This document shows positions 1 to 41,003 of a stretch of DNA of 41,003 bases, piece by piece. This DNA comes from a virus (Duplodnaviria > Heunggongvirae > Uroviricota > Caudoviricetes), in IMG/VR virus record IMGVR_UViG_3300045988_002471, positions 1 to 41,003 of that record, one strand, 5' to 3'. The position numbers and the translations under genes are program-made. Each line of letters begins with the position of its first letter. Position 1 is the stretch's first letter. The notes below the pieces were generated by a model. It was given only the letters and a program-made list of their open reading frames with translations. It did not search any database and was not told where the DNA came from.

Positions 1-55
1 ATGCGCCGCGCGTACAAAGACGGTTAATTCTGTACTGGCGGAAGAACTTGAAGAC
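1..55. repeat. 55-bp direct duplication of window end (identical to 40949..41003); circular closure / terminal redundancy
   Basis: Bases 1..55 are identical to 40949..41003 by direct reading; an ORF reads through the junction in frame. Confidence 0.9.
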
Positions 56-436: not shown

Positions 437-441
437 AGTGT

Positions 442-470
442 TGACACCCGAATAGTTAGCTATTATAGTT
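442..470 (+). promoter_or_regulatory. Sigma70-like promoter TTGACA-N17-TATAGT with embedded operator GAATAGTTAGCTATTA (451..466)
   Basis: -35 at 442..447, -10 at 465..470; near-identical to promoter/operator at 39210..39238. Confidence 0.6.
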
Positions 471-4063: not shown

Positions 4064-4355
4064 GGGGCGCATCCAGAAATACGCAAAAGAGCGATTCGAG
4101 GCCCTCGGTGGCCTCGTTCGAAAGCTGTCTTATGAGGGGCGCTCAGGCGCCCCCGACCTGCTGGTAATTCTTCCCGGCGGCATCGTCTGGTTCGTCGAGG
4201 TTAAGAAAGACGAAAACACGAAGCCAGACCCGCACCAGATACGTGAGCACGAGCGGATGCGTAAACGCGGTGCAAATGTTTTTGTAGTTGGTTCGCTCAA
4301 ACAGGTTGACGACCTAATAGCAAACTATTATAGTAGTCATACACCAACAATATAA
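4050..4355 (+). CDS. VRR-NUC domain nuclease (PD-(D/E)XK)
   Basis: 101 aa with GAPDLLVI...VWFVEVKK (D...E-V-K) core; RBS GAGGGG upstream. Confidence 0.7.
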   Translation: MSTPEGRIQKYAKERFEALGGLVRKLSYEGRSGAPDLLVILPGGIVWFVEVKKDENTKPDPHQIREHERMRKRGANVFVVGSLKQVDDLIANYYSSHTPTI

Positions 4356-4563: not shown

Positions 4564-5988
4564 ATGTCTAAATTTATCCGTCGAGAGTACCAGAAGCTCA
4601 TGACTTCGTTCATGTTGCAACACCCTCGCTGTAATATCTGGTGCGGCATGGGAGGGGGTAAAACCTCCTCTACTATGTGGGTGCTAAATCGACTGTTCCG
4701 TAATGGGCAACTTAATGACGACGACCGAGTGTTAATTCTGGCCCCTTTACGTGTTGCGTCCGGTACGTGGCCCGCAGAACAAGAGAAATGGAACTTCCCT
4801 TGTCTGCGTGTCGTCGATGCGACCGGTTCAGAGAAGCGCCGCATCGCGGCGCTGGAGTCAGATGCTAACGTGGTGTGCACAAACTACGAAGTTATCGAGT
4901 GGCTGATTGACTACTACGGCAAAGACGACTGGCCTTTTACGGTTATCGTTGCTGATGAGAGCACGAAGCTGAAATCTTTCCGTAGCCGTTCTGGAGGAAG
5001 CAAACGGGCTAAGGCGCTAAGCAAAGTGGCGTTCGGAAAGGTTAAGCGTTTCATTAACCTGACAGGCACACCGTCGCCGAACGGCCTCAAGGACTTGTGG
5101 GGGCAGAACTGGTTTATCGACGCTGGCGAGCGCCTTGGTTCTTCGTACACGGCATTCACCGACCGCTGGTTTAACTCAGTACAGAAAGGCAAGTCGGCGA
5201 TGGCGCGGGAGTACCACGCACGCCCGGGCGCGGATAATGAAATTCACCAGAAGATGAAAGACATAAGCCTCACTATTGACGCCGCTGAGTGGTTCGGGTG
5301 TGAAGCGCCGATTATTGTTCCGGTTGAAATCGACCTGCCGAAGAAAGCACGTCAGGCGTACATCGATATGGAGGAGAAGTTATTCGCGGAACTTGAGAGC
5401 GGGGAAGTGGAAGCTGCTAACGCTGCTGCGAAGACGTCGAAGTGCTTGCAAATTGCATCCGGTGCCGTATATGTATCGGGGCCAGACGGCGAAGCAACCA
5501 AAGAATGGGAGAAAGTGCACGACACGAAACTGGACGCGCTTGAGTCGATTGTGGAGGAGTTACAGGGTGCGCCGCTGCTTGTGGCCTATCAGTTCAAGCA
5601 CGAACTGGAGCGTATCCTTAAGCGATTCCCACAAGCACAGGCGTTTGCCAAAGGAGCGAAGGGTAATAAGCAGATGGAAGCGTGGAATCGTGGAGAAATC
5701 GAAATCTTATGCGTACATCCTGCGTCAGCGGGCCACGGCATATCGCTACAAGACGGCGGCCATCATATGGCGTTTTTCAGTCAGGGATGGAACCTCGAAC
5801 ACTATTTGCAGGTTATCGAGCGTATAGGTCCAACACGGCAAAAGCAATCTGGGTACAATCGCACCGTTTTTATCTACAAGATTATCGCTAAAGATACGTT
5901 GGATGAAGTAGTTGCGGCTCGTACCGACGAGAAAAAACAAGTACAAGACATACTACTAGAGTATATGAAGCGCAGAGGTAAAAAATGA
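4564..5988 (+). CDS. SNF2/DEAD-like superfamily 2 DNA helicase
   Basis: GMGGGKT Walker A-like, VIVADESTKLK DExx box, LTGTPSPN motif; start set to ATG 4564 after RBS AAGGA. Confidence 0.8.
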   Translation: MSKFIRREYQKLMTSFMLQHPRCNIWCGMGGGKTSSTMWVLNRLFRNGQLNDDDRVLILAPLRVASGTWPAEQEKWNFPCLRVVDATGSEKRRIAALESDANVVCTNYEVIEWLIDYYGKDDWPFTVIVADESTKLKSFRSRSGGSKRAKALSKVAFGKVKRFINLTGTPSPNGLKDLWGQNWFIDAGERLGSSYTAFTDRWFNSVQKGKSAMAREYHARPGADNEIHQKMKDISLTIDAAEWFGCEAPIIVPVEIDLPKKARQAYIDMEEKLFAELESGEVEAANAAAKTSKCLQIASGAVYVSGPDGEATKEWEKVHDTKLDALESIVEELQGAPLLVAYQFKHELERILKRFPQAQAFAKGAKGNKQMEAWNRGEIEILCVHPASAGHGISLQDGGHHMAFFSQGWNLEHYLQVIERIGPTRQKQSGYNRTVFIYKIIAKDTLDEVVAARTDEKKQVQDILLEYMKRRGKK

Positions 5989-6482
5989 CCTATTGGAATG
6001 AGCTTTTTAATTACGACCCTAATACCGGGGTACTATCATGGAAAAAGTGGCGTAGGGGTGCAAAAAGAAGTTTAGTAGCGGGCACAAAGGAGCGTGACGG
6101 GTATGTGCGTGTGAAACATAAAAACAAGCATATCCCCGTTCACAGAATAATTTGGGATATGTGCAACCCTAATGATGTTCTGACTCCCGGATTCGAGATA
6201 GACCATATAAATCACATAAGGGATGACAATAGAATATTAAACTTGAGAAAAGTAGTTAAGATTGATAACAACCGCAACACGACAAGAAACAAGGCTAATA
6301 CTTCTGGGGTTGTAGGTGTACATTTTAACCGTTCGAGAGGTAAATGGGTCGCCGTTATCTACGACAATCGTAAGCTCGTTTTCTTGGGGCACTTCTCTGA
6401 TTTCAAAGACGCTGTTGCTGTCAGGAAAGCAGCGGAAATAAAATACAATTACCACGAAAACCACGGGTCAGAAAAACCATGA
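5985..6482 (+). CDS. HNH homing endonuclease with AP2 domain (paralog of 1204..1677)
   Basis: IDHINHIRDDNRILNL HNH motif plus SGVVGVHFNRSRGKWVAVI AP2-like region. Confidence 0.75.
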   Translation: MTYWNELFNYDPNTGVLSWKKWRRGAKRSLVAGTKERDGYVRVKHKNKHIPVHRIIWDMCNPNDVLTPGFEIDHINHIRDDNRILNLRKVVKIDNNRNTTRNKANTSGVVGVHFNRSRGKWVAVIYDNRKLVFLGHFSDFKDAVAVRKAAEIKYNYHENHGSEKP

Positions 6483-9611: not shown

Positions 9612-12167
9612 TTAATTAAAACCATCGCTGAATCCGTCGGAGAAACCGCTGCCGTATGGCGCGACGCCGTCGTATTTATAGAAACCTTCATCATAGTTGT
9701 AGCCAGTAATCTTGACCGTGCGGTCGTCGCCCGGGTCGATTGAAGAAACAACTATCTTCTGTGCATTATGCCTTGCTTCGTTGCCGAATGAAAACTCAGT
9801 TTTTAGTGCGCTATTCCCTGTGTAGATTGCTTCCTCCGGCGCCGATAGCATAATCACCTCGCGGTCGTGGCTTCCTTGAATAACGGAGATACTCTGCACT
9901 GAGCCGTCGCGCTTCTTAAGAATGATGGAGTGGTCATCGCCCGCGGTAAACGTAACAGGCTGCGACAGCGTCAGCGTAAGCCCATTAACGGCAACAACAT
10001 AGCCGTCTTGTGGCGCAATACGCGAGCCTTTAACCACGCTGATTACGCCGCCGGGAGTAGCGAGCGCACCTTCTTCAGTAGCTTCGAACTCTACGACAAC
10101 TTTACTTAACGCATTGCGCTGATATCGACGCCACGCAAGCCAGTACGCCTGCTGGTAGTTGCGCACGCCCTTCGATTCGTATTCCTCAGTGTTTGCGCCG
10201 AGTTCTTCCGGGATATAAATAGTTTCCCGTACGTTAGTATCTGGGTCGATGTACGAGAACGAAAGGCTATCGTAGGTAGTCGAATCGTTGAACGTGCGGG
10301 TCCATTTCTCTGTACCGGTAGTTTTGCTGCGGTGGGTGAACACCATTTCAGGCCCCGCAACCGGACGGTCGAATCGCAACATAATATCCGCACCTTTACG
10401 GTACGCAGTACAGAAAACGGCTTCCGCTATGGTCTGAACAATGTCCTGCATCGTGGTGTCGTAGTCGTCGAACGTGTAGCAGAATTGTCCGGCTAATTCG
10501 CTGCCAAAATAGGACTCAATTTCTTCCTGCACAGCGAGTAACTTATCCATATTTGCCGTTGTCAGTTCCAGATTACCCACCGCCGGGTCTCGAGCCAGTC
10601 TGATTAGAGATTGCACGGCCTGAGTATTTGGGGTCATTACAGTATCGAACGTCCCATTGCCGAGGTATTTGTAGCACATCTCGGTCGCAATCATGCGCAG
10701 TTCCGGGTTGTCTATACTCGCCGCCCGCGGGGTCTGTTTACGGGCGCAATGTACGGTAGTTCGGTTGCCGTAGTGCGGTGTGGGGTCCAGAGACTGACCG
10801 TACAGGTTGATGAAGGTTATCTCGTCACTTACCGTGCCGTTGTAGTCTTTATCGAAATTCGTTATACGGCGCATGCGGGCGCGGAAACGCGATGCGGTTG
10901 GCAACTGCCCATAAATGGACGTGCCGACGTAATCCGTGCTATTACCAGTAATCGTAGCCTGTACCGTGTAAATATCGCTCAACGGGTTGCGTTGAGAATC
11001 AATCATCTGGTACTGGAGTTCTACGGTTACGCTGGTGCGGTTATAGCCGCCGTCGTATTTGTAGAGGCCGTTCTGCCCGGCAACGTTAGCAAGTACCCGG
11101 TCAACCTCTCCGCGCACCATGTAATACCAGTCCGTAAGAGATACGTCATAGGTGTTGCTTGGGCCTATAAACGTATCCGAACGCTCTGTAAGTGCGTAAG
11201 TCTCCCCGTTATTAAGGTTACCCCAGTTACCTATATCCCCGACGTACAACCGAACCTCAAAGTCGTCGACGTATAAAACTTCAAACGAGCCGTTTAGGTT
11301 AGTGACGTCCTTAACGTCGAAATTGCTCAACACTGCGACATCACCAACACTAAGAAACTCAGAAAAAGCAGAGTCACCCGACGGGTCATATAGGTAGCCG
11401 GTGGTCGAAATACGTTTGGCGGTTCCACCGGAGCTTGGGTTAGCTCCAATGTCGTTTGGCGCTTTCAGTACAATACCGTCAACGTCGTCGTTAGAGTACG
11501 TCACATAGAGTTTCTGGTCGATGACGTCGCCGATTTGTAGTTGCGGCGATGTGGTGTTGTTCGGTGACGTATACGGCGCGTATACGGCAACAGAGGAACC
11601 TGTGATGTCGCTTATCAGGGTGTCACCTTCCGTGACGCCATCCGCCTCAATATGCAGATGTCCGCGCCCGGCGTCGTAGTACGAATACTCCAGCAAAGCA
11701 CCAGTGGAGTTGAACGCCTTATACGTCTGCATCATGTCGTTAGGGATTGTCTGCACAGTCCCGCAGATGTCATAAGAGCGCTCGTAAGGGCGCGGCTTGT
11801 TTGAGCGGTCGGTAAGGCTGTTATTTGGCGATGTTGTCTGGTTATTAGTCGCCGTGTAGTTGGCGTTTGCAGACATGTTCAGGCCGAGCAACTTAGCGAT
11901 TGGCTTAAGGATAAAACCAAACACCTTACTAACGGCACCAAGCGCCCCGCTACCAGCGCCCTCAATAATGTGGTATACCGCGTCTTCATCTTTAAGCGCG
12001 TCGAAGTCGTCGGTGACATCAGTATCGTCACCAATCTCACCGAGGTAGACGCGCACCGGCACACCGTCCGGGATACGGTTAACGACAAACTCCATCGGCA
12101 TCCCGACGTGTTTTGTACGGTCGAAAGCGCCATCAGCGTTTCGCGTGTAGTGCAGGATTATCGCCAA
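9612..12167 (-). CDS. Large distal tail protein (tail tip / host-specificity J-like)
   Basis: 851 aa, between minor tail genes and tailspike. Confidence 0.5.
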   Translation of the reverse strand: MAIILHYTRNADGAFDRTKHVGMPMEFVVNRIPDGVPVRVYLGEIGDDTDVTDDFDALKDEDAVYHIIEGAGSGALGAVSKVFGFILKPIAKLLGLNMSANANYTATNNQTTSPNNSLTDRSNKPRPYERSYDICGTVQTIPNDMMQTYKAFNSTGALLEYSYYDAGRGHLHIEADGVTEGDTLISDITGSSVAVYAPYTSPNNTTSPQLQIGDVIDQKLYVTYSNDDVDGIVLKAPNDIGANPSSGGTAKRISTTGYLYDPSGDSAFSEFLSVGDVAVLSNFDVKDVTNLNGSFEVLYVDDFEVRLYVGDIGNWGNLNNGETYALTERSDTFIGPSNTYDVSLTDWYYMVRGEVDRVLANVAGQNGLYKYDGGYNRTSVTVELQYQMIDSQRNPLSDIYTVQATITGNSTDYVGTSIYGQLPTASRFRARMRRITNFDKDYNGTVSDEITFINLYGQSLDPTPHYGNRTTVHCARKQTPRAASIDNPELRMIATEMCYKYLGNGTFDTVMTPNTQAVQSLIRLARDPAVGNLELTTANMDKLLAVQEEIESYFGSELAGQFCYTFDDYDTTMQDIVQTIAEAVFCTAYRKGADIMLRFDRPVAGPEMVFTHRSKTTGTEKWTRTFNDSTTYDSLSFSYIDPDTNVRETIYIPEELGANTEEYESKGVRNYQQAYWLAWRRYQRNALSKVVVEFEATEEGALATPGGVISVVKGSRIAPQDGYVVAVNGLTLTLSQPVTFTAGDDHSIILKKRDGSVQSISVIQGSHDREVIMLSAPEEAIYTGNSALKTEFSFGNEARHNAQKIVVSSIDPGDDRTVKITGYNYDEGFYKYDGVAPYGSGFSDGFSDGFN

Positions 12168-12523: not shown

Positions 12524-13035
12524 GTCGTCAACAGGCCGCGCAATAACGGTATCTCTTTAGGTGTCATCAGTATACCAGTGCTTCGTTGGTTCAGCATAGG
12601 TGTACCAACATCCGCGGAGAACTCACCCTTCTCCTGGTTGATGGCCTGCAACTCGTACACGACGGGGCCGTCAGCCGGGTAAGACAGGTCGGTGCTGACG
12701 TAACGGCGAAATACGAACTTCGGCAACTCAGTATTGCTCATAGGGATTTTATCCATCTCATCATCAAGTTGATCGAGAATATCCGGTAAAGTAAACGTAG
12801 TCGTCTGGTCCATATCGCTATTATTAGCAGCCCCTGACGCTTCCATCGGGGTGGGTTCGAACGTGACTGTTTCACCTGTCTCTAGTGTTGCCGTAAGTTC
12901 CTGTAACCCGCGCACAAGGTAATACGTCTTCGACAGCAACGGGTGGCTTATTTGCAGAGTGATATAGTCCATCTCACCGTCGGGATTTGAGGCCAGCTTA
13001 CGGCGATAGGCGGCTTCTACTGATTCCTGACTCAT
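12520..13035 (-). CDS. Minor tail protein
   Basis: Track ORF; start set to ATG 13035 (ATGA overlap with upstream stop). Confidence 0.45.
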   Translation of the reverse strand: MSQESVEAAYRRKLASNPDGEMDYITLQISHPLLSKTYYLVRGLQELTATLETGETVTFEPTPMEASGAANNSDMDQTTTFTLPDILDQLDDEMDKIPMSNTELPKFVFRRYVSTDLSYPADGPVVYELQAINQEKGEFSADVGTPMLNQRSTGILMTPKEIPLLRGLLTT

Positions 13036-13532
13036 TGCATAGGGTCCCAAATTCGTGGAAACGTTGATTGTGCGGTTCCGTAGGCTTTAAGGAAACACCC
13101 CAGCCCATCACCATAGCAGCCGTACAAATCGGGCAGATTGTTAATCAGGCACTGGTTCTCAAGGTCCTGGAACGGTGATTTCTCGGCGGTTGCCGTGAAG
13201 GTGATTGTCCAGTTAATCCCGTCTTCGGTGGACTCGGCGATAGTGGACGTAATGGTTACCTGATAATCTTCGATGCCCATGCCGAAGTCGTGCGCCATCC
13301 AGAAACTTGACGCACCACCGTCTACTTTTTCGAGGAACGACAGAAACGCCTGCCGTCCCAGTGCCGATGTAATCAGGGTTACGCTAACAGGGAACACGTC
13401 GTAATACGTGTCACGGCCCTGACGCACCCCGCCACCGGCTAAATCTACACTCCAGACGTTGTTACGTCTGGTCATTGAGTAGCCTTTCGATACAATTGGC
13501 TTAAGGCTACGTGGGAAATATAAGTCGCTCAT
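13032..13532 (-). CDS. Minor tail protein (distal tail, downstream of tape measure)
   Basis: 166 aa; start overlaps tape-measure stop. Confidence 0.45.
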   Translation of the reverse strand: MSDLYFPRSLKPIVSKGYSMTRRNNVWSVDLAGGGVRQGRDTYYDVFPVSVTLITSALGRQAFLSFLEKVDGGASSFWMAHDFGMGIEDYQVTITSTIAESTEDGINWTITFTATAEKSPFQDLENQCLINNLPDLYGCYGDGLGCFLKAYGTAQSTFPRIWDPMQ

Positions 13533-16579: not shown

Positions 16580-16687
16580 TCTTTAATCCTTTGGTTAAGA
16601 GGTTACAGGTTAACGATAAATGCGCCAGACGGGAACCACCCGCTTTTCGTGTGCGACACTAGGCGCAAACTTATTCTATCACATTAC

Positions 16688-16716
16688 TTGCACACCCCAA
16701 TATAATAGGGTACTAT
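16688..16716 (+). promoter_or_regulatory. Promoter TTGCAC-N17-TACTAT with operator-like palindrome (16703..16720) driving the plus-strand island
   Basis: -35 at 16688..16693, -10 at 16711..16716; the ~38-bp block recurs at 34662..34700 and 35663..35700. Confidence 0.55.
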
Positions 16717-16746
16717 TCACTTACACCAACAATGAAGGGGTTTAAA

Positions 16747-25096: not shown

Positions 25097-25168
25097 CTTA
25101 TCATTTAAACATAGAAACGGCGTAATCTCAGTAAACCAGTTACTTTTTACACAAGCAATAGAGTATGG

Positions 25169-25263
25169 CCCTTCCGAACGCGTCAGCGTAACTACACTCA
25201 GGACTTACGTCCCGCTCCGTTACCTGCCCGCGCCGCGGTCGCTTGTTCATACTTCACAAGCTC
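25169..25263 (-). ncRNA. Candidate structured leader RNA / cis-regulatory element, copy A
   Basis: Conserved blocks shared with 35876..35971; two hairpins at matching positions with different sequences; dedicated upstream promoter. Confidence 0.4.
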
Positions 25264-25269
25264 AGGTGG

Positions 25270-25298
25270 AGCTTAGCACATTTTCAGTGAAAAGTCAA
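25270..25298 (-). promoter_or_regulatory. Promoter TTGACT-N14-TGc-TAAGCT (extended -10) for element copy A
   Basis: -35 at 25298..25293, -10 at 25275..25270; same promoter at 35978..36006. Confidence 0.45.
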
Positions 25299-25361
25299 CT
25301 ATTCGAATAGTTTATTCCAACATTTACAATTATGTGGAATAACTGGAATAATCACAGGCGC

Positions 25362-31226: not shown

Positions 31227-31381
31227 TTGAAGAAACCATCCTCGACAAGCTGACGGTATAGTTTAGCTGCGTAACGCTCTGCCTGGCCTTTGCGCCGAAA
31301 TATTTTCCCATTAACTGAATACTTATTTAACTCTGGCTCGTACCAAACTTGGTTGTCGATGAACTCCAGAATACTAATCAT
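31223..31381 (-). CDS. Small ORF (52 aa)
   Basis: Own translation MISILEFIDNQVWYEPELNKYSVNGKIF...; ATGA coupling. Confidence 0.3.
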   Translation of the reverse strand: MISILEFIDNQVWYEPELNKYSVNGKIFRRKGQAERYAAKLYRQLVEDGFFK

Positions 31382-31614
31382 TCCCCACTCTCCTCTTTAG
31401 CAATACGTTGCTCAGTTTTAGTGATACCCCGGCGCGTGAATAACACCGGGCTTGTCTTAACGTGCGTCATCAGACGGTTGTTATAAATTACATGGCGCTC
31501 GCAGTTAACGTCTTTGCTGTACTTGGCAATCGTCATTTCGTTGATGCCGGTTTGTCGGCATGTCTCAGCCATCGTGCCGTATTCTTTAATCAGGTTCGGA
31601 ATGCTGGTAATCAT
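31378..31614 (-). CDS. Small protein with possible HTH (78 aa)
   Basis: Track ORF trimmed to MITSIPNLIKEYGTMAETCRQTGINEMTIAKYSKD... (ATGA coupling). Confidence 0.4.
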   Translation of the reverse strand: MITSIPNLIKEYGTMAETCRQTGINEMTIAKYSKDVNCERHVIYNNRLMTHVKTSPVLFTRRGITKTEQRIAKEESGE

Positions 31615-31781
31615 CCTAAGAAATTCCTCGTTGTCCACATCGCATTCGGATATTTGTTATCGCGGTCCCGCACTACGGCAACCATGTTACCGCGTTGCAC
31701 CAGGCAAAAGTGCCGTTGTTGCTCGCCGTTGTAACGACGCCAGATTGCCTCTTCGATTGCTGCGTTAATGTCACTGAACAC
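31611..31781 (-). CDS. Small ORF (about 56 aa, GTG start)
   Basis: Track ORF has TTG start; GTG with RBS chosen instead. Confidence 0.3.
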   Translation of the reverse strand: MFSDINAAIEEAIWRRYNGEQQRHFCLVQRGNMVAVVRDRDNKYPNAMWTTRNFLG

Positions 31782-32752: not shown

Positions 32753-32781
32753 AATATAATAGGGTCGATGGTAATAGTCAA
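32753..32781 (-). promoter_or_regulatory. Sigma70-like promoter TTGACT-N17-TATATT for the small-ORF operon
   Basis: -35 at 32781..32776, -10 at 32758..32753 on the minus strand. Confidence 0.55.
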
Positions 32782-32802
32782 CTAGTCATTACAGAAAATA
32801 GA

Positions 32803-34661: not shown

Positions 34662-34700
34662 AAATGAATAGTAGCCTATTCTATCTTAGTGTGCAAGTAA
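34662..34700 (-). promoter_or_regulatory. Promoter TTGCAC-N17-TACTAT with palindromic operator GAATAGTAGCCTATTC (34666..34681)
   Basis: Perfect 6-bp half-site inverted repeat overlapping the -10. Confidence 0.55.
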
Positions 34701-34877: not shown

Positions 34878-35001
34878 TGTTGCATCTCCTGCAATAGTCG
34901 CTTCGATTGTTGCGTTTGATGAAAGTGTCGCCTTTTGACGACACTAAGTTAAAGTTGTACGCTGCTGTGTAGCAGCGTAAGTCATTAAGCCAAATAGTAA
35001 G

Positions 35002-35163
35002 CTATTGACCTGTTACACCACCTGTTACACCGGCACGATATTGCACACCAGCTTTCCACGCCCGCCACGCAAGACGCGTCTTAACGTTCAGGTACTCTTT
35101 CTTCGAACCCTTGTTAACTGGCAGACCCTCGACGACGGCCCACCGCTCAAATGCTTCTCTCAT
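35002..35163 (-). CDS. Small ORF (53 aa)
   Basis: Own translation MREAFERWAVVEGLPVNKGSKKEYLNVKTRLAWRAWKAGVQYRAGVTGGVTGQ; RBS GGAGGA. Confidence 0.3.
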   Translation of the reverse strand: MREAFERWAVVEGLPVNKGSKKEYLNVKTRLAWRAWKAGVQYRAGVTGGVTGQ

Positions 35164-35634: not shown

Positions 35635-35662
35635 TTCTAAATTCCTTATGTCTCGTTTCGAT

Positions 35663-35700
35663 AAGTGAATAGTAACCTATTATGTTGGGGTGTGCAAGAT
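35663..35700 (-). promoter_or_regulatory. Promoter TTGCAC-N18-TACTAT with operator GAATAGTAACCTATTA (35667..35682)
   Basis: About 38-bp block nearly identical to the reverse complement of 16688..16725. Confidence 0.55.
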
Positions 35701-35875
35701 AATAGTTACGTTGCCGTTGTGATTCTTTCGTTTCTTAAAAGAGTACGCAACGCAGTGGGTGGGCGTTAGCCCACCCCAGCGGAGTGAAGTACTCTCTACC
35801 TTGCTCACGGCAACTATAGAAACTTTTAATTATCAGTGACTTGGATATTTAGGCGGGATTAACAATAGACTTTGA

Positions 35876-35971
35876 CCCTTCCGAAAGCGTCAGCGGAACT
35901 ACACTCAAGTGCCTAATGGCACGCGTTGCGTTCCCTGCCGCTCCGCGGTCGCTTGCGATATCTCACAAGCT
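35876..35971 (-). ncRNA. Candidate structured leader RNA / cis-regulatory element, copy B
   Basis: Shares conserved blocks with 25169..25263; hairpin GTGCC-atta-GGCAC at 35909..35922 replaces GGAC-ttac-GTCC of copy A. Confidence 0.4.
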
Positions 35972-35977
35972 CAGTGA

Positions 35978-36006
35978 AGCTTAGCATATTTTCAAGTAAA
36001 AGTCAA
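35978..36006 (-). promoter_or_regulatory. Promoter TTGACT-N14-TGc-TAAGCT for element copy B
   Basis: -35 at 36006..36001, -10 at 35983..35978; conserved with copy A. Confidence 0.45.
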
Positions 36007-36053
36007 TACCAGTAGCATCTTTTGTATTTTAGTAACTTTGCGTGGTGTTTTGG

Positions 36054-36082
36054 TTGCTTTTACAAAGTTACCGCCTTATACT
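36054..36082 (+). promoter_or_regulatory. Sigma70-like promoter TTGCTT-N17-TATACT for the plus-strand early operon
   Basis: Motifs about 30 nt upstream of the AlpA-like gene RBS. Confidence 0.45.
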
Positions 36083-36111: not shown

Positions 36112-36282
36112 ATGACTATCAATGAAGTTGCAGAATTAATCGGCGTCACCCGCCAGACGATCAATAACTGGATTAAGAGTGGAAAGTTTCCTGATTGCAG
36201 CGTTAAAGTAATGGGGCGCCGTTTACCAGGAACATTTGACCGTAATAAAGTTGAAGCGTGGATTAAGGAGAACGTGAAATGA
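36112..36282 (+). CDS. AlpA-family HTH DNA-binding protein (Xis/AlpA-like)
   Basis: MTINEVAELIGVTRQTINNWIKSGKFPD...; start set to ATG 36112 after RBS CAGGAGAG. Confidence 0.6.
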   Translation: MTINEVAELIGVTRQTINNWIKSGKFPDCSVKVMGRRLPGTFDRNKVEAWIKENVK

Positions 36283-38920: not shown

Positions 38921-38940
38921 AAAGGGGCATTAAGCCCCTT
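38921..38940 (-). terminator. Terminator-like hairpin (GGGGC-attaa-GCCCC) with T-rich tail on the minus strand, overlapping the repressor stop
   Basis: Short GC stem followed by TTTCTTTTTAC on the minus strand. Confidence 0.4.
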
Positions 38941-39145
38941 CACCGAACGCCAGCCACTTGGCGTCTACTTGTAGCACTTCCGCCAGCTTGAACAGCGTCG
39001 CCGGCCGGACGTCCTGAGTTACCCCGAGCGCAAGCTGGTTAATCGCGCCCTGGGAAACGCCAGCCAGGACCGCCAGACGGCGCTGGGAGATGCCGAGTTC
39101 TTTACGGCGTTGTTCTACGCGGATACCTAGTTCAGATGGTTGCAT
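38930..39145 (-). CDS. XRE-family HTH transcriptional regulator (Cro/CI-like)
   Basis: LGISQRRLAVLAGVSQGAINQLALG helix-turn-helix; 71 aa; divergent from operator-bearing promoter. Confidence 0.8.
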   Translation of the reverse strand: MQPSELGIRVEQRRKELGISQRRLAVLAGVSQGAINQLALGVTQDVRPATLFKLAEVLQVDAKWLAFGEGA

Positions 39146-39172: not shown

Positions 39173-39190
39173 GTGAATAGTACCATATTA
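39173..39190. promoter_or_regulatory. Operator-like site GTGAATAGTACCATATTA upstream of the repressor gene
   Basis: GAATAG half-site shared with five other sites. Confidence 0.45.
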
Positions 39191-39209
39191 ATTATTTTAG
39201 AAAAGCCCA

Positions 39210-39238
39210 TTGACACGTGAATAGTTCGCTATTATAGT
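39210..39238 (+). promoter_or_regulatory. Promoter TTGACA-N17-TATAGT with embedded operator GAATAGTTCGCTATTA (39219..39234)
   Basis: Consensus -35 and near-consensus -10; operator occupies the spacer. Confidence 0.65.
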
Positions 39239-40104: not shown

Positions 40105-41003
40105 TTCTTAAAGAACGCGGTGGAAATAACGATGTTCACGCATTACTGTCGCCGTCTGGGGCTAAAAAGTGGCTAAGCTGTGCCGCATCACTGGCCTGTG
40201 AGAAAGATATTCCTAACTCGTCCGGCAAAGCTGCCGTATTAGGTACAGCAATGCACACCATAGCAGAGATGCATCTTAACCAGTACATCAAAGGCACTGC
40301 GCTGCCGTTAGAGCGCGAAGTCGGGGCTTACGTGCTGGATGAAGGTAAAGGCCAGATTAAGGCTCTAATCAGCCCGATGAAAGGCGCGGTACTTATTACG
40401 GCGGACATGATTGAACAGGTGCGCAAGTACACCGACTACTGCAAAGCGATTATAGACGTAGCTACTTACGCTAAGCTGGAAATGCGCGTCAATCTTACAC
40501 AGATTCTACACCCCGGGTACAAAGTACCCGTTGAAGGTGAAGAAGGCGAGGAAGATGATTTAGAGACGTTCGGAACGGCTGACCTTGTTGCCGTTCAGGA
40601 ACTGGCTAACACCGACGAGTACATGCTCATTATTGGCGACCTTAAAACGGGTCGGCATCGTGTCGAAGCGAAAGAAAACAAGCAGCTTATGCTTTACGCT
40701 CTCGGTGTTTATCGCAGACTCAAGAGACGTTATAACATCACCGTTGTCCGTCTGGTTATCTTCCAGCCGTACGCGGGCGGTGCGTCGGAGTGGGACATCT
40801 CGGTTGAGGGACTTGAACTGTTCGCTAAGTTCGCACAGAAACGGGCGCTGTTGGCCCTTGATGCCTATTTCCGTGGTAAGAAGAACCTGAAAGCGTCGGA
40901 CTTCAAGCCATCAGCCGATGGTTGCCAGTGGTGCCGGTTCTCTGAACAATGCGCCGCGCGTACAAAGACGGTTAATTCTGTACTGGCGGAAGAACTTGAA
41001 GAC
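40101..41003 (+). CDS. PD-(D/E)XK exonuclease, Cas4-like / DUF2800-like, N-terminal part (continues as 1..436 across the junction)
   Basis: Own translation from ATG 40101 (ATGA overlap with upstream stop): GTADLV...IGDLKTG nuclease motifs, QLMLYALG (QxxxY) motif, N-terminal C..C and C-terminal CQWCRFSEQC cysteine cluster; no stop before window end. Confidence 0.7.
   Translation, partial: MILKERGGNNDVHALLSPSGAKKWLSCAASLACEKDIPNSSGKAAVLGTAMHTIAEMHLNQYIKGTALPLEREVGAYVLDEGKGQIKALISPMKGAVLITADMIEQVRKYTDYCKAIIDVATYAKLEMRVNLTQILHPGYKVPVEGEEGEEDDLETFGTADLVAVQELANTDEYMLIIGDLKTGRHRVEAKENKQLMLYALGVYRRLKRRYNITVVRLVIFQPYAGGASEWDISVEGLELFAKFAQKRALLALDAYFRGKKNLKASDFKPSADGCQWCRFSEQCAARTKTVNSVLAEELED
40949..41003. 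repeat. Second copy of the 55-bp junction duplication
   Basis: Identical to 1..55. Confidence 0.9.

Follow-up and report, generated by a model that had tools for sequence, protein, structure and literature searches.

The XRE gene and its divergent control region

The locus studied here contains a small XRE-family gene on the minus strand, which is transcribed divergently from a plus-strand gene for a 172-aa phrog_3127 protein. It lies in the window, by which we mean the whole stretch of 41,003 nt that was analysed. The intergenic region holds two palindromic sites that bracket the promoter of the XRE gene, and the features are as follows:

38930-39145, minus strand: XRE/HTH_3 protein of 71 aa, 434-Cro-like, the proposed repressor
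39175-39190: O-left, GAATAGTACCATATTA, imperfect palindrome overlapping the -10 of the XRE promoter
39182-39177 (-10, TACTAT) and 39205-39200 (-35, CTTTTC, weak), minus strand: promoter of the XRE gene
39210-39238, plus strand: promoter P4, TTGACA-cgtg-AATAGTTCGCTATT-ATAGT, with O-right in its spacer; leads to the phrog_3127 gene and a PD-(D/E)XK/DUF2800 exonuclease operon

The first-pass annotation had placed two related palindromes in this region, GTGAATAGTACCATATTA at 39173-39190 and GAATAGTTCGCTATTA at 39219-39234, and had set the second of them inside a consensus promoter. Both sequences were found at these positions, and the promoter hexamers TTGACA (39210-39215) and TATAGT (39233-39238) are separated by 17 bp as described.

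The first 55 bp of the window (1-55) are repeated exactly at its other end (40949-41003), and the window is therefore a circular assembly with a true genome length of 40,948 bp. The repeat is the assembly overlap of a circular or circularly permuted genome, and the exonuclease gene and the P4 operon span the junction. At the nucleotide level the sequence is 88-93% identical to Escherichia phages of the genus Kagunavirus, subfamily Guernseyvirinae, such as vB_EcoS-phiEc3. Its gene set is that of a small virulent siphovirus (tailspike, tail proteins, tape measure, portal, terminase, capsid, holin and endolysin), together with genes for a DNA polymerase, two helicases, a Gp2.5-like SSB, exonucleases and HNH endonucleases. 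No integrase gene was found in the window or among the annotations of its relatives, and no antiterminator module of the Q or N type was identified in the window. Similarly, a phage RNA polymerase gene is absent: every ORF of at least 390 aa encodes a tail, head, packaging or replication protein, and the annotations of the relatives list none. The window is a complete, obligately lytic Kagunavirus-type genome without an RNA polymerase of its own.

An inverted repeat is enriched at promoters of non-structural genes

A genome-wide motif search, which the first-pass annotation had proposed, gave seven exact copies of the dyad AATAG-N4-CTATT against 0.05 expected, and none of 100 dinucleotide-preserving shuffles reached seven. 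When one mismatch was allowed, 11 sites were obtained in the genome against 0.87 expected. An unbiased tally of every inverted repeat with 5- or 6-nt arms, at gaps from 0 to 8 nt, ranked this dyad first in the window, ahead of the terminator stems. The occurrence of the dyad is real and highly non-random. The four central nucleotides differ from site to site (TTAG, CAAA, GGTA, TAGC, TAAG, TAAC, TTCG and TACC). Of the four sites with one mismatch, we regard two as meaningful, namely O-left (39176-39189) and the one at 32773-32786, which covers the -35 of a promoter on the minus strand, while the one at 10508, inside a tail gene, is probably due to chance and the one at 25290, within an unrelated repeat, is doubtful.

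The four further promoter/operator units that had been listed by the first-pass annotation (P5, P7, P2 and P1 below) are all present, and the search added three sites to them: the P6 unit, the exact palindrome at 34993-35006 and the site at 32773-32786. The units had been called near-identical. Repeated promoter/operator units do exist, but they fall into three architectures rather than one, all with spacers of 17 bp. In class A, a TTGAC(A/G) hexamer is followed by 4 nt and then by the dyad, which lies in the spacer, and TATAGT begins at the last T of the dyad; the three class A promoters (P4, P5 and P6) are all on the plus strand. In class B (TTGCAC-N17-TACTAT), to which the XRE promoter also belongs, the dyad spans the last 6-7 bases of the spacer and the whole -10. 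In class C (TTGACT-N17-TATATT), an imperfect dyad supplies the -35 from its centre and its right half. Away from the XRE locus, the sites are distributed as follows:

441-469, plus strand: P5, class A, TTGACA-N17-TATAGT with AATAGTTAGCTATT (451-464) in the spacer; leads to the Gp2.5-like SSB, an HNH endonuclease and the DNA polymerase
4306-4334, plus strand: P6, class A, TTGACG-N17-TATAGT with AATAGCAAACTATT (4316-4329); leads to phrog_4879, an SNF2-type DNA helicase and an HNH endonuclease
16688-16717, plus strand: P7, class B, TTGCAC (16688-16693)-N17-TACTAT (16711-16716) with AATAGGGTACTATT (16704-16717) over the -10; leads to a superinfection-immunity protein, a DNA repair exonuclease, a polynucleotide kinase and a dNMP kinase, a plus-strand island among tail genes
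32753-32786, minus strand: class C, TTGACT (32781-32776)-N17-TATATT (32758-32753) with the one-mismatch site AATAGTCAACTAGT (32773-32786) over the -35; has a terminator on its upstream side and leads to DUF2737, NinH-like and terminase genes
34667-34696, minus strand: P2, class B, -35 at 34696-34691, -10 TACTAT at 34673-34668, palindrome at 34667-34680; leads to small ORFs and then to holin and endolysin
34993-35006, minus strand: exact palindrome AATAGTAAGCTATT between two small ORFs, with a -10-like TACTAT and no recognisable -35
35668-35697, minus strand: P1, class B, -35 at 35697-35692, -10 at 35674-35669, palindrome at 35668-35681; leads to a series of small early ORFs

The palindrome at 34993-35006, whose conservation in the relatives is lower, may serve as an internal operator or else be a weak promoter. 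The mismatch of the class C site, in turn, is kept in the Jerseyvirus phage SETP3 (at 40840) and in the Kagunavirus relatives. Two groups of operons lack the dyad. The promoter of the helicase-primase operon, whose first gene encodes an HTH_17 protein, has TTGCTT (36054) and TATACT (36082) at a 17-bp distance and carries no dyad, and in the structural operons strong consensus promoters are missing as well as the dyad. We also considered whether the dyad might act as an RNA hairpin. This reading was rejected because the stem would have only five A/T-rich pairs and because the class A sites lie upstream of the transcription start; an Rfam scan of the window gave no matches.

P7 and P1 are 95% identical over 37 nt (16687-16723 against 35662-35698), from the -35 to about +6, which is more than the hexamers and the dyad need. 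This similarity suggests that the unit was copied recently or that the spacer (ACCCCAA) is under some additional constraint.

The XRE protein resembles 434 Cro

The XRE protein matched Pfam HTH_3 with 48.1 bits (cutoff 23) over residues 11-65, and it is the only HTH_3 gene found in the window; its divergent neighbour, the phrog_3127 protein, has no Pfam HTH domain. The best sequence match in the PDB was 434 Cro, which is also 71 aa long (E 4.9e-7, residues 6-68 against 4-64, about 38-41% identity). An AF2 model (pLDDT 78) contains five helices, at 5-17, 21-28, 32-39, 48-57 and 62-66, and Foldseek placed the 434 repressor DNA-binding domain and 434 Cro (1pra, 2cro and 3cro) at the top of the matches, with TM scores of about 0.73-0.79. 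As modelled, the chain adopts the five-helix HTH_3 fold, in which helices 2 and 3 would form the HTH. It is a single domain of Cro size, without a C-terminal oligomerisation or peptidase domain.

The operators of phage 434 are 14-bp dyads of even length that lie inside promoters; their outer bases are contacted and the central four are not, and Gln28 of 434 Cro reads the outermost adenine. The dyad described here likewise has 14 bp, an even length and a 5+4+5 layout. The Gln that aligns with Gln28 is invariant in the XRE proteins of Kagunavirus, Jerseyvirus and Cornellvirus; in each of the three, the dyad has A as its outermost base. The half-site differs, being AATAG here and ACAA in 434. A dimer of this protein would be predicted to bind a two-fold symmetric operator, and a dyad of fitting geometry is present and enriched.

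The dyad follows the phage lineage

We compared the locus in related phages. AATAG-N4-CTATT occurs in 37 of 37 Kagunavirus loci, where the XRE protein is 77-100% identical to that of the window, and in 13 of 13 Jerseyvirus loci, where the identity is 44-52%. The genome of Jerseyvirus SETP3 holds five copies against 0.03 expected. In contrast, the dyad is absent from Cornellvirus, with no copy in 41.6 kb and none in five Cornellvirus-type loci (XRE identity 39-41%). Cornellvirus instead carries dyads of the type TATTA-N6-TAATA, with the half-site (C/G)TA(A/T)TA (seven against 0.86 expected); they occupy the corresponding places in the promoters, and two of them lie upstream of the XRE gene. In a distant fourth lineage (L073, XRE identity 42%), TAATAG-N4-(A/G)TATTA was found at the orthologous promoters. 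The XRE gene is present in every lineage, and two sites always lie in its upstream region, in Cornellvirus and L073 as well. O-left is imperfect in every lineage examined, and the same imperfect half is kept in the Kagunavirus relatives. The orthologous XRE gene of SETP3 has a promoter that clearly reads TTGCAC-N17-TACTAT, and here too the site overlies the -10.

The two Salmonella genera, Jerseyvirus and Cornellvirus, share a host and have different dyads, whereas Kagunavirus (E. coli) and Jerseyvirus differ in host and have the same dyad. The dyad thus tracks the phage lineage and not the host, which argues that the protein binding it is phage-encoded. Most transcription factors are common to E. 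coli and Salmonella, and a host factor through which the phage couples early transcription to host physiology could in principle account for a dyad shared by Kagunavirus and Jerseyvirus, but we consider this very improbable, given that Cornellvirus infects Salmonella like Jerseyvirus and carries a different dyad, and we know of no enterobacterial factor with the consensus AATAG-N4-CTATT.

Within the phage, co-variation does not by itself single out the XRE protein, because the differences in its recognition helix do not map simply onto those in the dyad. The XRE proteins of Kagunavirus and Jerseyvirus are 51% identical and differ at four of eight positions of the recognition helix (SQGAINQL and SQSLITHL), and their dyad is the same; the Cornellvirus helix (TQSAISHL) is nearer to that of Jerseyvirus, yet its dyad differs. 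With only three or four independent lineages, such a comparison has little power. A search for intermediate XRE variants gave only proteins of 77-99% identity with recognition helix and dyad unchanged, which agree with the XRE protein as binder but do not discriminate, and further scans for new XRE lineages found none. Kagunavirus has the two sites next to the XRE gene 44 bp apart, Jerseyvirus 55 bp and Cornellvirus about 63 bp; since this spacing is not conserved, we make no claim of cooperativity from helical phasing.

In Cornellvirus vB_CECAV_044 (locus L003, 10664-11340) and in L073 (4700-5400), the XRE gene is co-directional with the helicase-primase gene and lies directly upstream of it, whereas in Kagunavirus and Jerseyvirus the two are convergent. 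The operator pair stays with the XRE gene despite this difference in gene orientation.

A scan of one genome per species across about 185,000 species found no close prophage copy. A 19-kb scaffold labelled Taishania pollutisoli (NZ_JACVEL010000022.1, a Flavobacteriia-type assembly) carries a Jerseyvirus-type XRE gene, 51% identical to that of the window at the protein level, together with the same dyads. This scaffold is probably a phage contamination of the assembly and not a prophage.

Other phage proteins as candidate binders

Two further HTH proteins are encoded in the window, a NinH-like protein (31378-31638, minus strand) and the HTH_17/excisionase-like protein (36112-36282, plus strand), and either could be the protein for which the dyads are operators. 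We regard this as unlikely, although it is the alternative that fared best. In favour of HTH_17, its Kagunavirus and Jerseyvirus versions are 77% identical, in line with the dyad that these two genera share, and no HTH_17 was found in Cornellvirus, where the dyad is another one. However, Cornellvirus and L073 retain the whole promoter-operator architecture where HTH_17 was not found (none in five Cornellvirus-type loci). Moreover, in one Kagunavirus genome (L029, IMGVR_UViG_3300045988_014597) HTH_17 has been replaced, and an XRE protein of 98.6% identity and eight sites with at most one mismatch persist. Within Kagunavirus the identity of HTH_17 ranges from 64 to 100% with no change in the motif, and the promoter of its own operon lacks the dyad. 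To our knowledge, proteins of the HTH_17/Xis type do not bind 14-bp dyads as dimers. In the genomes compared, HTH_17 is dispensable for the sites. A MerR-type regulator that binds the promoter spacer was also considered and rejected: the spacers are 17 bp and not 19-20 bp, and the HTH_17 protein has 56 aa, consisting of the domain only without a coiled-coil helix.

The NinH-like protein is harder to set aside on its distribution. It occurs in all three genera and in 22 of 22 loci that cover its position, so that presence or absence does not discriminate against it, and its own operon has the class C site at the promoter. Its divergence does not match the change of the dyad, though, with 69% identity between Kagunavirus and Cornellvirus, whose dyads differ, and 64% between Kagunavirus and Jerseyvirus, whose dyads are the same. 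Its Pfam score is below the threshold, and lambda NinH is a Fis-like protein of low sequence specificity. Finally, neither of the two genes adjoins the paired sites.

In L029, the replaced segment (12559-13144) comprises HTH_17 and the next ORF of 96 aa, which are swapped for ORFs of 47 aa (with two CxxC pairs) and 149 aa; neither of the new ORFs has a Pfam match. For the KilA-N-like amidase protein, no homologue was found in Cornellvirus.

The dyad is separable from the promoter hexamers

The repeat could also be a conserved promoter consensus without any repressor, either a phage-specific promoter or a sequence favoured by the host RNA polymerase. This has a published precedent, since the same motif, as a PHIRE consensus (tgAATAGTa-ccTATTat-T) in seven copies, was attributed to a phage-encoded RNA polymerase in the Kagunavirus fBC-Eco01 (PMC9825357); seven PHIRE promoters were likewise reported in the Golestan paper (PMC7203180), and the GenBank record of SETP3 annotates two of the sites simply as promoters. 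In addition, the right half-site overlaps a -10-like hexamer (TATAGT, TATTAT or TACTAT) at every site. The assignment to a phage polymerase is contradicted by the absence of such a gene here and in the annotated relatives.

As to the host polymerase, the distance of the dyad from the -35 argues against a fixed promoter element, which would keep a single register. The dyad is offset from the -35 by 4, 7 or 11-12 nt or, in class C, covers it, next to good sigma-70 hexamers; the distance of 7 nt is a fourth register that is seen in SETP3. Because it occupies several registers relative to the hexamers, the dyad is separable from them. We then examined a conservation footprint in orthologous regions that were picked by flanking homology only, each represented by 27-41 distinct sequences. 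Conservation covers the two hexamers and both half-sites, and variation is seen in the central 4 nt and in the stretch that separates the -35 from the dyad. In the same footprint, the spacer of the operator-free helicase-primase promoter is variable. Sigma-70 reads no bases in the promoter spacer, yet the left half-site of class A lies in the spacer and is conserved, and sigma-70 recognition offers no explanation for this dyad-symmetric half-site. Near-consensus hexamers (11 of 12 matches) need no additional element, and the helicase-primase promoter indicates that these phages also use plain sigma-70-type promoters. Judged by its several registers, its left half-site in the spacer and the footprint, the dyad is more than a part of the promoter, and we consider a bare promoter consensus improbable, slightly more so than binding by another phage protein.

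A proposed Cro-like regulon in a virulent phage

We propose that the XRE protein is a Cro-like, autoregulated repressor that acts through the dyads on a regulon of promoters in a virulent phage. We put the probability of this full statement, which includes the XRE protein as the binder, repression as the effect and the timing, at about 0.65. The reading is the best supported one for several reasons: the dyad occurs in three registers, its half-sites are conserved around a variable centre of 4 nt, it tracks the phage lineage, two of its sites bracket the XRE promoter, the protein is 434-Cro-like and fits the 14-bp 5+4+5 geometry, and HTH_17 is dispensable. We are more confident that the dyads are protein-binding operators than we are of the regulon as a whole, and less confident of the exact temporal role of the XRE protein. 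The single XRE regulon over the early and replication promoters, as first suggested from the window alone, therefore holds up as the preferred explanation after the comparative analysis, but it does not cover the helicase-primase operon.

According to this model, the host sigma-70 RNA polymerase would start, on entry of the phage, at about eight strong near-consensus promoters for non-structural genes, each of which carries one 14-bp dyad between the -35 and +1. The XRE protein would accumulate from its own weaker promoter and would then occupy the consensus dyads, its dimer placing one recognition helix on each 5-bp half-site and making no contact with the central 4 bp. With every site situated between the -35 and +1, bound XRE would occlude RNA polymerase. 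The operons that would be turned down are those of the SSB and DNA polymerase, the helicase and the exonuclease, the superinfection-immunity and nucleotide-kinase island, and two operons of small genes, one of which leads to the lysis genes. As O-left is imperfect, autorepression of the XRE gene might set in only at higher protein levels.

The lysis cassette sits downstream of a dyad-bearing promoter, and the position of holin and endolysin under P2, a promoter that is proposed to be shut off, speaks against a simple switch of early genes. Together with the exemption of the helicase-primase operon, this suggests that the programme is not a simple early shut-off. A bolder extension is that the XRE protein is the master timer of the non-structural programme and perhaps also a determinant of immunity at the level of transcription, silencing the early promoters of a superinfecting relative; we consider this rather doubtful. 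If it were true, Kagunavirus and Jerseyvirus would form one homoimmune group despite the 51% identity of their repressors, and Cornellvirus would be heteroimmune. XRE protein supplied in trans would then block these therapeutic phages, and edits of the operators would retime them.

Relation to known systems

The model shares several traits with phage 434, as set out above, but differs in that no partner CI repressor, tripartite OR, integrase or lysogeny is present, and in that the 9-10 sites are dispersed over the genome and not confined to one immunity region. Lambdoid Cro turns down PL and PR in lytic growth. The XRE protein would resemble it as a small single-domain HTH repressor, produced early and encoded beside divergent promoters, with operators over core promoters and one of them for autoregulation. 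Unlike lambdoid Cro, it would be the only repressor of a virulent phage and serve about eight promoters, with no CI and no identified Q/N module. A lambdoid immunity region with a CI/Cro switch was not recognised at the locus, where we found no divergent CI-type gene, no integrase or lysogeny module and no prophage relatives.

Many operators for one repressor, scattered at or near promoters, are known for P1 C1 and for gp71 of mycobacteriophage L5 (stoperators). The dispersed copies of the dyad are similar in this respect, but P1 C1 and L5 gp71 serve to maintain lysogeny, their sites are asymmetric and they come from other protein families. The controller (C) proteins of restriction-modification systems, such as C.AhdI and C.BclI, are also comparable, as they are small dimers of the XRE fold (to which the fold search gave matches) with dyads in their own promoter and a delay by autoregulation. 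They differ in that they activate and then repress from paired C-boxes and in their sites, and the window has no restriction-modification genes.

Phage therapy and biocontrol of E. coli and Salmonella draw on Guernseyvirinae (Kagunavirus, Jerseyvirus and Cornellvirus), which count among the siphoviruses isolated most frequently for these purposes and also serve as small engineering chassis; their transcription programme is essentially undescribed. The literature has treated the group as lacking a repressor and has misread the motif as a promoter that serves a non-existent phage polymerase. For instance, SETP3-like phages are given as "Repressor type: None" in the Anderson typing-phage paper (PMC10307801), and our literature search found no paper that reads the motif as the operator of an XRE protein. 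In coarse RNA-seq of the Kagunavirus K1B4, an HTH gene (K1B4_008), a candidate orthologue of the XRE gene, was among the four earliest-peaking genes (PMC12645636). A defined operator with a candidate repressor provides a testable model of early and middle gene control, yields strong, repressible sigma-70 promoters for engineering, and offers a possible explanation for interference among related phages in cocktails. The type of switch is familiar, and the group that would use it is usually described as having no repressor. Since the concept is that of the familiar Cro/operator system, the advance lies in the annotation and understanding of this group and not in a new principle.

Additional sequence features

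The exact palindrome at 34993-35006 directly adjoins a tandem direct repeat, two copies of ACCTGTTACACC (GGTGTAACAGGT on the minus strand) at about 35008-35031, which may be the binding site for another factor.

HNH endonuclease paralogues are encoded at 1180-1677 and 5985-6482, one in each of two replication operons. Both are of phrog_99 and 165 aa long and are likely homing endonucleases, and the number of HNH endonuclease genes differs between relatives.

In the unrelated Klebsiella phage klb_E (locus L004, 34260-34380), two divergent XRE genes flank an ACAAAC-TT-GTTTGT dyad in the classical CI/Cro-type arrangement. Its XRE protein is 45% identical to that of the window and its operator is very different.

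A second repeat family, which is unrelated to the dyad, consists of an intergenic element of 150-180 nt at about 25130-25310 and about 35830-36015, on the same strand and about 85% identical in its core. It has no Rfam match. On the plus strand, a promoter-like site comes 50-70 nt after each copy, at 25323-25352 for the first and at 36054-36082, the helicase-primase promoter, for the second; this second copy is strongly conserved in the relatives. Candidate roles of the element are those of an origin, a region for activator binding or an element of late control. Within the first copy, CTATTCGAATAG at 25299-25310 presents two operator half-sites that face outward, and it adjoins the one-mismatch dyad at 25290-25303.
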